Below are positions 53,251-54,642 of a stretch of 64,000 nucleotides of DNA, piece by piece. Each line of letters opens with the position of its first letter. Position 1 is the first letter of the stretch. The notes beneath the pieces are model-generated. The model did not search any database. It was given only the letters and a program-made list of their open reading frames with translations, and was not told where the DNA came from. The position numbers and the translations under genes were made by a program. Origin of the DNA: an uncultured Gammaproteobacteria bacterium. Lineage in GTDB: Bacteria > Patescibacteriota > Patescibacteriia > Magasanikbacterales > GWA2-37-8. The stretch is taken from assembly GCA_964465205.1 (NCBI GenBank), contig CAYXJO010000001.1:5099-69098 (forward strand). The letters are read 5' to 3'.

Positions 53251-54642
53251 TTATTTCGGGAATTGTGCGGCGATCATCTTGGCGCCGATATCCAGTCGTG
53301 GGTCGAACAAGAGTTCGACAGCGGCCGTGCGGCTGCGACGTACTTTCATTGACACCACGTCTTCGATCACCAGGTTACCGTCGATGACCGCACGAATGGC
53401 GCGATGTTCGGCTTCAAGGTTGGTGACCATGATTTCAGCGTCGGTAGGCAGAATAGCGAAGCGCCAGTTCGGCCGGGCGACGTTATTGCCAACCATGATC
53501 AGCGCCTGGGAGTTGAGGGGCACCGGCGGCGCCCCCATCGATCGGGCGTAAGCAGCCGACCCTTGTGGTGCGGCTACTAGAATGCCATCAGCCTCCAGCT
53601 TTTTGATGCGCGTTTTGCCATTTACGGCGACGCGCATCCAAGCTGTGCTGGGGCTGGATCTCTCCCACCAGACATCGTTGAAGGCAATCTCGCGGTGGGT
53701 TTTTCCCTTCGCGTCCACCACCTCCACGTAGAGTAGAGGAAGGTGAAACACCGTGAGCGCTTGTTCCAACTCGATGTCGGGTTGATTGAGTAGGAAGCCG
53801 AGGTGGCCCTGGTTGATTCCGACGAACGGGATGCGCCGGTACCAATTGGAGCGAATGCTGTCGAGCAAACGTCCATCGCCGCCAATCGACACGATCAGGT
53901 CCGGCTTCTCGGAATCGAGTATATAACTCTCGTTAATCCGGGTCGCGGTTCGCATTGCTGCCGAGTTGTGGTGGTTGGTCAGGCAGTACGCCCGCACGAT
54001 TCTGTCCGGCGGGTTCCAGATCGCCTGATGAGGAATCACGCCGCCTTTGTACAACTGGTACCGTTTGATGTACTCGGCCACGCGCGGCGTGACCAAATGT
54101 TCAAACGGTTTGCCGTTGTAGATTCTTTCCCGGATTTCCGTACTGCTTCCTCCGGATTCAACTCCGGGGATGACGTGATTGTGCGGCGGCAGATCGATGT
54201 CGGTGTTGGGGCTTCCCGGTCGGTTGATCAGAATGAACCGGGAATTTTTCCATAGTTGGTGGCCGCTTTTCCAGGTTCGCTGGATTGTGCTCTCACCACG
54301 TTTGCCGCCGGTGGTCAAGTCCGAGCCGACCACATGCCAGACATCGTATCCGTCCGCTTTGTAGCGGCGTTCCAGATCGATGTTGGGGGTGAACATTGTG
54401 TTGCTCTCCAGGTCGGAGAGGTCCACGGTGATCTTAGGTAGATCTGCGAACGTCATGTCCACCATGGCAGCGCGGTGGACAGACGGTATGGTGTTTGTTG
54501 TGCTTTTGTCCGGCCGGATTCCACACGGCACGACGATTACCTCGTCGATACCGGGGAGCTCGGCCACGGCCTGTGCGATCGCGCGGTGATGCAACCCGGG
54601 AGGGTTGAAACTACCGCCGAAGATGGCAATGGTGCGTTTCAT
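53251..54642 (-). CDS. Fusion protein: NMN/NaMN adenylyltransferase (N-terminal) + NAD kinase (C-terminal)
   Basis: N-terminal IFGGSFNPPGLHH (GxFxPxHxxH). C-terminal half has the NAD-kinase motif GGDGRLL and the NE/D short motif NDVWWE. Confidence 0.75.
   Translation of the reverse strand: MKRTIAIFGGSFNPPGLHHRAIAQAVAELPGIDEVIVVPCGIRPDKSTTNTIPSVHRAAMVDMTFADLPKITVDLSDLESNTMFTPNIDLERRYKADGYDVWHVVGSDLTTGGKRGESTIQRTWKSGHQLWKNSRFILINRPGSPNTDIDLPPHNHVIPGVESGGSSTEIRERIYNGKPFEHLVTPRVAEYIKRYQLYKGGVIPHQAIWNPPDRIVRAYCLTNHHNSAAMRTATRINESYILDSEKPDLIVSIGGDGRLLDSIRSNWYRRIPFVGINQGHLGFLLNQPDIELEQALTVFHLPLLYVEVVDAKGKTHREIAFNDVWWERSSPSTAWMRVAVNGKTRIKKLEADGILVAAPQGSAAYARSMGAPPVPLNSQALIMVGNNVARPNWRFAILPTDAEIMVTNLEAEHRAIRAVIDGNLVIEDVVSMKVRRSRTAAVELLFDPRLDIGAKMIAAQFPK

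Follow-up and report, generated by a model that had tools for sequence, protein, structure and literature searches.

NadD and NadK, which act at core steps in the synthesis of NAD(P), are considered antibacterial targets. We describe here a gene that encodes both as a single polypeptide, located on the minus strand at 53251..54642 of a 64-kb stretch of contig CAYXJO010000001.1; this whole stretch is referred to as the window, and coordinates are positions within it. The evidence presented below indicates that the product is probably a genuinely bifunctional enzyme, a nicotinic acid mononucleotide (NaMN) adenylyltransferase joined to an NAD kinase.

Fusions of an adenylyltransferase to another enzyme of the NAD pathway have precedents in NadR, which combines an NMNAT with a ribosylnicotinamide kinase, and in NadM-Nudix, which combines an NMNAT with an ADP-ribose pyrophosphatase. 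The window protein follows the same principle, but differs from these types, which prefer nicotinamide mononucleotide (NMN), in both the adenylyltransferase subfamily and the partner, and matches NadD models rather than those of NadR or NadM. A precedent on the kinase side is the archaeal MJ0917-type NADP phosphatase/NAD kinase (NF010678, which the kinase half of the fusion matches at 1.6e-13), where an NAD kinase is likewise fused to an NAD(P)-metabolizing domain. The partner domain of the MJ0917 type is an IMPase-like phosphatase that acts on the kinase's product, whereas the partner in the window protein is an adenylyltransferase that belongs two steps upstream.

The closest regulatory precedent is the NrtR regulon, described in a paper whose main text makes no mention of nadK (Rodionov et al. 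2008, PMC2330246). NadM-Nudix and nadR-pnuC belong to this regulon, and in Clostridium, Pseudomonas and cyanobacteria nrtR is clustered with pncA, pncB, nadD and nadE. The window resembles this regulon in having nrtR and, upstream of nrtR, a 21-bp box with a GT-N7-AC core, but differs in that the boxes are placed ahead of nrtR and of a PP2C-kinase-vWA operon, and none stands before the transcription unit of the fusion itself.

Domain architecture and distribution of the fusion

The gene and the parts of its product are located as follows.

53251..54642, minus strand: NadD-NadK fusion gene, 463 aa, ATG start, stop codon at 53251-53253; product 100% identical to P0001 in a public collection
54046..54642, minus strand: NadD-type nucleotidyltransferase domain, residues 1-199 (PF01467, TIGR00482 and PDB profile match)
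53995..54045, minus strand: variable interdomain linker of 17 residues, residues 200-216 (23% mean pairwise identity)
53254..53994, minus strand: short-form NAD kinase domain, residues 217-463 (NF003406, PF01513, PF20143, PDB profile matches, Foldseek)

An initial annotation of the window, made from the letters alone, had proposed a single 463-aa open reading frame (ORF) joining a nucleotidyltransferase to a complete NAD kinase. This was borne out by Pfam, by NCBIfam and by the ORF itself, which reads from the minus strand and contains no internal stop codon according to the sequence and the ORF list. The sequence strings quoted by that annotation are all present in the translation (IFGGSFNPPGLHH at residues 7-19, GGDGRLL at residues 254-260, and NDVWWE at residues 322-327). 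Residues 7-173 match PF01467 (CTP_transf_like; 1.4e-11, 45.1 bits against a cut-off of 21), which identifies the nucleotidyltransferase fold, and both Pfam halves of NAD kinase score above gathering, PF01513 (NAD_kinase) at residues 244-287 with 28.4 against 25.5 bits and PF20143 (NAD_kinase_C) at residues 329-429 with 27.3 against 23.7 bits. When the domain boundary was checked by hidden Markov model, as had been proposed, the NadD model TIGR00482 covered residues 7-198 (6.7e-27) and the NAD kinase model NF003406 covered residues 225-461 (7e-49); several other NadD models and more than 15 further NadK models of NCBIfam also match.

Structural comparison gave the same division. With a profile of the family, the best PDB match of the N-terminal half was the B. 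subtilis NaMN adenylyltransferase 1kam (3.5e-20, profile positions 2-194), and the C-terminal half matched M. tuberculosis PpnK (1y3h, 1.2e-18), a T. maritima structure (1yt5) and L. monocytogenes NADK1; no PDB chain covering both halves was matched by this profile. An AlphaFold2 model, with the family alignment as input, had a predicted local distance difference test score (pLDDT) of 90.1 and a predicted template modeling score (pTM) of 0.90. The latter suggests a fixed interface between the modeled domains. All 50 matches listed from a Foldseek search against the PDB were NAD(H) kinases (target TM-score 0.63-0.79, best E 5e-19).

Statements on invariant residues are based on an alignment of 28 sequences of the family, and motif counts were taken over 121 family members. 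The sequences align collinearly through the junction. Four residues at the C-terminal end of the NadD domain (Y191, R194, L197 and Y198) are invariant, and the family's LYRG aligns with the C-terminal end (GLYE) of B. subtilis NadD. Mean pairwise identity is 52% for the NadD part and 54% for the NadK part, compared to 23% for the linker, as one would expect if selection maintained two domains connected by a spacer.

The fusion has many relatives. A search of 5.8 billion proteins yielded 638 homologues, the best 120 of which all share this two-domain architecture at a length of 450-499 aa. When 1.84 billion representatives (50% clustering) were searched exhaustively with phmmer, 278 clusters reached E<=1e-30, the best ~125 being for the most part full-length fusions. 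In a scan of one genome for each of 185,579 species, 392 stretches encoded a relative, and the best 80 of these 392, to which the locus counts and most of the L-numbers below refer, are all full-length. Grouped by phylum according to record titles, they are distributed as follows.

Verrucomicrobiota (Prosthecobacter, Brevifollis gellanilyticus NBRC 108608, Luteolibacter): 46 of the best 80 loci
Planctomycetota: 11 of the best 80 loci
Acidobacteriota: 7 of the best 80 loci
Bdellovibrionota, Myxococcota and 'delta': 7 of the best 80 loci
Patescibacteria: 2 of the best 80 loci
Other labels: 7 of the best 80 loci

Two cultured species, Brevifollis gellanilyticus and Prosthecobacter fluviatilis, are among the carriers of the full-length fusion. 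A scan of IMG/VR detected no relative, and no phage record covered 80% or more of the fusion. The description of the arrangement as non-standard in the initial annotation thus holds for textbook bacteria, for which it is unusual, but this is a widespread family and no one-off.

This distribution bears on the possibility that adjacent nadD and nadK genes were merged by a missed stop or a frameshift in sequencing or assembly. Such an origin would be in keeping with the stand-alone NadD-like and NadK-like relatives present in some metagenomes, but the search for the same fusion elsewhere returned at least 120 full-length collinear homologues from independent sources, and the gene is full-length in 80 of the 80 best loci, cultured species included. 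The junction residues are conserved, and an independent Logan assembly (SRR11845629, locus L001) contains an identical 463-aa gene. A frameshift is ruled out by these observations, and we regard an artefact of any such kind as vanishingly improbable.

Annotation of the family varies among databases. Its members are called 'NAD(+)/NADH kinase' or 'nicotinate (nicotinamide) nucleotide adenylyltransferase', and at JGI 'NAD kinase/nicotinic acid mononucleotide adenylyltransferase'. The Prokaryotic Genome Annotation Pipeline (PGAP) names them 'NAD(+)/NADH kinase' alone or 'adenylyltransferase' alone, and none of the curated family models is matched above its cut-off. The fusion is real and widespread, and is annotated automatically but inconsistently; it is seemingly uncharacterized in the searchable literature.

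Active-site motifs and divergent relatives

The principal motifs of the two domains are located as follows.

54586..54618, minus strand: GGSFNPPGLHH (residues 9-19), a variant ATP-binding motif with (G/A)xHH in place of (H/T)xGH (from the 28-sequence alignment)
54130..54147, minus strand: SSTEIR (residues 166-171), the second NadD signature SxTxxR; S167 and R171 invariant; aligns with SSTMIR of B. subtilis NadD
53872..53883, minus strand: GGDG (residues 254-257), catalytic Asp motif of NAD kinases; invariant in the alignment and present in 121/121 members; aligns with GGDG of M. tuberculosis PpnK
53662..53682, minus strand: FNDVWWE (residues 321-327), counterpart of the NAD kinase 'NE' motif; F321, N322 and D323 invariant; aligns with aLNEv of PpnK
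53545..53562, minus strand: GSAAYA (residues 361-366), Gly-rich NAD-binding motif, canonically TGSTAY; G361, S362 and Y365 invariant

The kinase half retains the hallmarks of short-form NadK/PpnK enzymes (EC 2.7.1.23; NF003406/PRK04761; 1yt5, 1y3h, 2i1w). In addition to GGDG, FN[DE] is found in all 121 members and GSxxYA in 119 of them; the remaining NxGxLGF and DG motifs are kept as well, both Pfam halves are present, and the predicted fold superposes on whole NAD kinase chains with a target TM-score of up to 0.79. The differences from NadK are the sequence FND instead of NE, (A/T)AAGS instead of TPTGS, a NadD domain in place of the free N-terminus, and a score of 166 compared to the 211 bits required by NF003406. 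NAD kinases and diacylglycerol kinases share a GGDG fold superfamily, and this score under the equivalog cut-off could be taken to favor what the initial annotation had raised as a refutation of its own reading, that the C-terminal half is a different GGDG-motif kinase, taken here to include the diacylglycerol, sphingosine and other lipid kinase-like types. Pfam, however, gave NAD_kinase and NAD_kinase_C and no DAGK model at E<=0.01, the numerous NCBIfam NAD kinase models agree, and no lipid kinase is found among the 50 Foldseek matches listed. A diacylglycerol kinase-like C-terminal half is ruled out on the Pfam and Foldseek results, and with FND and GSxxYA conserved any other GGDG kinase is very improbable.

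The adenylyltransferase half, too, departs from its model. It belongs to the same PF01467 fold family as NadD (EC 2.7.7.18, TIGR00482, B. subtilis 1kam), with which it is collinear over the full length, and preserves GxFxPP...H, GxD, RPG, SSTxIR and a Trp that aligns with the Trp of LPKWY in B. subtilis; as with NadD, the gene is linked to pncB, pncA and nadE. The signatures kept across the family are GGSFxPP, PCGxRPDK (corresponding to MPNQIPPHK in B. subtilis NadD), GxD, W124, RPG and SSTxIR, the last supplying the C-terminal SxTxxR (ISSTxIR) signature of NadD enzymes. The fusion differs from NadD in its (G/A)xHH motif, in an 8-residue insertion before the conserved Trp, in a score under the TIGR00482 cut-off, and in being covalently joined to an NAD kinase. 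The initial annotation had called the first motif HxGH, and this needs correction. Where B. subtilis NadD reads FGGTFDPPHNGH the fusion reads FGGSFNPPGLHH, the first His being replaced by Gly and the Gly by His. The (G/A)xHH form is found in 118 of the 121 members and HxxH in only 2; P0085 and one further member keep the His at the first position. Within the 28-sequence alignment there is no variation at S11, F12, P14 or H19, and conservation of H18 is at least 90%. By its sequence, the NadD domain represents a divergent subfamily. Phosphopantetheine adenylyltransferase (PPAT) and human NMNAT use TxxH, in which the last His is kept; since such relatives exist, the invariant H19 of the fusion would be compatible with catalysis.

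The family has a side branch (P0299, P0317, P0365, P0287, P0263, P0297, P0340 and P0347) in which the proteins carry an extra N-terminal extension of ~90 aa. Here the NadD-like module is degenerate (PPTSAQ, PPTSTQ or PPSRYH) and is lost to detection by Pfam, yet is still fused to NadK, and the FND of the kinase is changed to FGD, FSD or FAD. Three of these proteins are triple fusions (P0299, P0317, P0365), with a canonical NadD (GGAFDPIHxGH, SSTEIR) ahead of the degenerate module and NadK. In P0287 a CobT-like (DBI_PRT), NaMN-dependent phosphoribosyltransferase is positioned in front, and the branch as a whole reaches three- and four-module proteins. These arrangements, together with the unfused relatives described below, argue that physical coupling of an adenylyltransferase activity to the fusion-type NadK has been selected repeatedly. 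They also contain a hint that the resident NadD-like module has some non-catalytic value, structural or regulatory, since proteins that have lost its histidines still keep it.

These relatives bring up the alternative that the GxHH module is a pseudo-enzyme, a non-catalytic nucleotide sensor or scaffold that regulates or oligomerizes the NAD kinase. The replacement of the first His throughout nearly all of the family would fit with this, as would the loss of the last His as well in P0340, P0347, P0299 and P0317, whose modules go undetected by Pfam but remain joined to NadK, the addition of a canonical NadD upstream in P0299 and P0317, and the fixed domain interface suggested by the pTM. In the main branch, however, to which the window protein belongs, H19, PCGxRPDK, W124, RPG and S167/R171 vary little or not at all and align with the signatures of B. 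subtilis NadD, the last His is the one kept in the TxxH relatives, and P0085 and its companion have the first-position His. A stand-alone GxHH protein, P0375, has pncB starting 15 nt downstream and no NadK there to regulate, and no other NadD was found in the window. We consider a non-catalytic N-terminal module unlikely on this evidence and favor an active adenylyltransferase.

Unfused relatives of both halves are also present. Stand-alone NadD-like proteins of 193-205 aa with the same GxHH motif occur in metagenomes, P0375 among them. Stand-alone NadKs of the fusion's subfamily exist too, and the gene for one of them, P0379, overlaps (ATGA) an upstream gene whose product has a canonical nucleotidyltransferase as its C-terminal half (GSFDPLQFGH...ISSTMLR). 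The two make up a predicted adenylyltransferase and NadK pair in unfused form. Such a translationally coupled pair lies at L083, on a 1.17-Mb contig, where the upstream gene (3793-5001) encodes a 402-aa protein with an uncharacterized N-terminal half of ~220 aa and a canonical NMNAT/NadD-like C-terminal half.

Gene context in the window and in related loci

The fusion lies within a group of minus-strand genes for vitamin-B3 salvage and NAD metabolism, listed here in the direction of transcription.

62950..62970: NrtR-operator-like 21-bp palindrome overlapping the nrtR promoter (motif match)
62261..62947, minus strand: nrtR, ADP-ribose-responsive Nudix-type repressor of NAD genes (PF21906 6.7e-22, PF00293; NF050029 4.7e-43)
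62223-62243 and 62101-62121: NrtR-operator-like 21-bp palindromes upstream of the PP2C gene (motif match)
56446-56474: strong terminator-like hairpin, 12-bp stem, preceding the promoter of the unk255-pncA-fusion unit
56361..56389, minus strand: promoter-like TTGACA-17-TATAGT (11/12, with TG) heading unk255-pncA-fusion (sequence match to consensus)
55507..56274, minus strand: 255-aa ORF (unk255), apparent first gene of the pncA-fusion unit (one sub-gathering Pfam match)
54653..55480, minus strand: pncA-like nicotinamidase gene, preceding the fusion immediately within one transcription unit (PF00857 2.1e-16; NF008623 nicotinamidase/pyrazinamidase 1.2e-23)
54647..54651, minus strand: Shine-Dalgarno sequence GGAGG, 4 nt before the fusion ATG (read from the sequence)
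52459..53118, minus strand: Nudix-like (ADP-ribose pyrophosphatase-like) gene downstream of the fusion (TIGR00052 1.7e-07; PDB ADP-ribose pyrophosphatase 9dua, E=0.005)
50822..52441, minus strand: pncB, nicotinate phosphoribosyltransferase (TIGR01513 2.5e-143, above cut-off)
49743-50696, minus strand: radical SAM gene between pncB and nadE, weakly MoaA/viperin-like
47728..49695, minus strand: nadE, glutamine-dependent NAD synthetase with CN-hydrolase and NAD synthase domains (PF00795 1.4e-21; PF02540 3.2e-18)

The pncA stop codon (TAA, 54653-54655) is situated 10 nt before the fusion ATG. The order of the island is thus nrtR; genes for PP2C, a protein kinase, a 616-aa ORF and a vWA-like ORF; the hairpin and promoter; unk255, pncA and the fusion; and the Nudix-like gene, pncB, the radical SAM gene and nadE. 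All steps from nicotinamide to NADP are encoded within ~8 kb, and a phmmer search found no second NadD or NadK in the 64-kb window. The 255-aa ORF has no significant Pfam, NCBIfam or PDB match and no homologue in the best 80 related loci; at L001 the gene caller assigned it a shorter, 178-aa start. In the Nudix-like protein, whose gene adjoins the fusion in L045, L054 and L067 too, the Nudix box is degenerate (E to L, R to Q, E to Q at three key residues), and the protein may function in binding and not in hydrolysis.

The window is part of a bacterial chromosome. It contains gyrA, rpsA, ftsH, thrS, tsaD and a type II secretion ATPase gene, and its GyrA shares 77-80% identity with proteins of Candidatus Magasanikbacteria/Patescibacteria. 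These genes, together with the negative results for phage records and IMG/VR, rule out a phage origin or a role in counter-defense by NAD reconstitution. GC content is 51-61% over most of ~41.8-62.2 kb (~20 kb), compared to ~39-47% for the background, and the GC-rich stretch starts ~1 kb past a tRNA-Glu gene (40660-40732), after a TrmB-like regulator. Because its GC content differs from the background, the ~41800-62200 stretch is probably a horizontally acquired island with NAD, CoA-like and nucleoside genes.

The operator-like sites were examined as to sequence and position. The three palindromes flank nrtR and share a consensus of approximately TTAGTGTA-N5-TACACTAA with a GT-N7-AC core, which is typical of NrtR operators (PMC2330246). 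Three matches are present in the window compared to 0.10 expected, and they score 23.7-26 bits with a position weight matrix, the next best site of the window scoring 14. In related genomes the motif (<=3 mismatches) is found at 7 of the best 80 loci, other phyla included, and all 7 carry nrtR. It stands at the head of operons, before pncB in L006, L011 and L058, directly before the fusion in L012, and ahead of nrtR in L002, L045 and L067.

The genes that accompany the fusion elsewhere are in part the same. Within 8 kb of the fusion, nadE is present at 10, nrtR at 8, pncA at 7 and pncB at 6 of the best 80 loci. The order pncB-(nadE)-nrtR-pncA-fusion is found in the Planctomycetota and 'delta' loci L006, L011, L021 and L058, in its full form with nadE in L011 and L058. 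Most of the window order (PP2C-kinase-616aa-vWA-fusion-Nudix-like) recurs in L045, in L054 (Parcubacteria) and in L067 (Komeilibacteria), where nrtR, pncA and nadE are each found in two of the three. In most Verrucomicrobia the neighbors of the fusion are unrelated; those conserved in this group (an MBL-fold protein, a rhodanese and an Rrf2-type regulator) have no NAD link. Judged from gene order and motif matches, the fusion is in several lineages a predicted member of an NrtR-controlled operon for Preiss-Handler salvage.

Several further observations were made on the neighborhood. The four genes at 56523-61977 (minus strand), for PP2C, protein kinase, the 616-aa ORF and the vWA-like ORF (with a MIDAS-like DDTGSMGG), constitute an operon that separates nrtR from the NAD genes and has two NrtR-like boxes in front. 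The same four-gene module is found with the fusion in L045, L054 and L067 at 40-67% identity. A combination of vWA, PP2C and kinase is reportedly known as the 'TerY-P triad' from work by Anantharaman and Aravind, which we take the PP2C-kinase-vWA operon of the window to resemble. A radical SAM copy adjoins the fusion in L002 (7687-8673; 54% identical to the window gene), a radical SAM gene is found at 12296-13267 of L067, and another lies beside the unfused adenylyltransferase and NadK pair in L083; comparison of the last with the window gene gave no support for orthology, the similarity being just that of the generic core (E=0.004).

At the other end of the island, the ORF at 41739-42791 (plus strand, 350 aa) was considered as a NadR but is CoaD-like instead, with a CoaD/PPAT-like adenylyltransferase domain (TIGR01510 1e-23, residues 6-157) followed by a P-loop (AAA/kinase-like) C-terminal half. 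It may be a second cofactor-pathway fusion, of CoaD and a kinase, in the same island. Elsewhere in the window, a short GC-rich segment (58%) at 10-12 kb overlaps an SPFH/Band-7 gene. Five tRNA genes are present in the 64 kb (12082-12338, 15091-15163, 36193-36267, 40660-40732), which fits a small, gene-dense genome of the candidate phyla radiation (CPR); Rfam at the gathering threshold gives just these 5 tRNAs and no riboswitch in the window.

Proposed function

In the proposed scheme, the N-terminal NadD-type domain would convert NaMN (possibly NMN too) and ATP to nicotinic acid adenine dinucleotide (NaAD) or NAD, and the C-terminal short-form NAD kinase would convert NAD to NADP. NaMN is the most probable substrate of the N-terminal domain because the fusion sits in the NrtR-controlled Preiss-Handler operons of several lineages. 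The route encoded by the island would then run from nicotinamide to nicotinic acid (PncA), to NaMN (PncB), to NaAD (N-terminal domain of the fusion), to NAD (NadE), and to NADP (C-terminal domain of the fusion). As for the benefit of fusion, fixed 1:1 co-expression is the most likely, perhaps with cross-regulation between the two activities, such as feedback by NAD(P)(H) on the adenylyltransferase. The initial annotation had suggested that NaMN/NMN adenylylation is channelled toward NADP+, and as stated this is unsupported: the neighboring pncA, pncB and nadE specify a route by way of NaMN, in which the product of the NadD step has to pass through NadE before NadK can act. With this intervening enzyme, direct substrate channelling is unlikely.

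Channelling would be feasible if the two domains performed consecutive reactions, either with an NMN-preferring N-terminal domain (NMN to NAD to NADP) or with phosphorylation of NaAD (NaMN to NaAD to NaADP) followed by amidation to NADP by NadE. Three points could be read in this direction: consecutive steps are what fusions usually join, the kinase belongs to a divergent branch that scores under the equivalog cut-off, and P0287 is fused to a CobT-like phosphoribosyltransferase that itself uses NaMN. The closest structures to the N-terminal domain, however, are bacterial NaMN-specific NadDs, human NMNAT matching weakly, and the recurrent partners pncA, pncB and nadE specify the deamidated route with NadE in between. 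Near the fusion, no gene that would provide NMN (nadV, pnuC or one for a nadR-type kinase) was identified. To our knowledge no NadK is known that uses mainly NaAD as its substrate. Consecutive catalysis is accordingly given a low likelihood by us, and non-consecutive NadD and NadK activities remain the preferred interpretation.

A number of points weigh against this interpretation. Neither half reaches the equivalog cut-off of its best model, the NadD half scoring 94.8 against 112.45 bits with TIGR00482 and the kinase half 166.3 against 211 bits with NF003406. The first His/Thr of (H/T)xGH is replaced in 118 of the 121 members, and in the side branch a His-less NadD-like module persists on NadK, so that catalysis is not the sole reason for attachment. 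The fused activities are non-consecutive in the encoded pathway. In the window no NrtR box precedes the fusion's own transcription unit, the best site outside the three palindromes scoring 14 bits, and literature searches turned up no paper that describes a NadD-NadK fusion.

Further readings are kept open because the His-less module persists on NadK and a canonical NadD has been re-added in the triple fusions. The NadD-like module could be a sensor of NaMN, NaAD or ATP, or a scaffold, that gates the kinase; the kinase could relay feedback by NADP(H) to adenylyl transfer; or, more radically, the kinase could phosphorylate NaAD in a true channel (NaMN to NaAD to NaADP) that NadE completes. We regard these as outside chances. 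If the sensor or feedback reading were true, the fusion would be a single-polypeptide homeostat that sets the NAD:NADP ratio.

The predicted activities overturn nothing that is established: they describe a variant of known enzymes, of modest interest and no surprise, and offer a testable lead for enzymology. The inconsistent naming of the family exposes a gap in annotation. A natural single-chain NadD-NadK, found in hundreds of species, would be a ready system for studying the balance between NAD synthesis and its conversion to NADP. For the CPR host, the compositionally foreign island would supply the whole route from nicotinamide to NADP, with the fusion providing two of its five steps.

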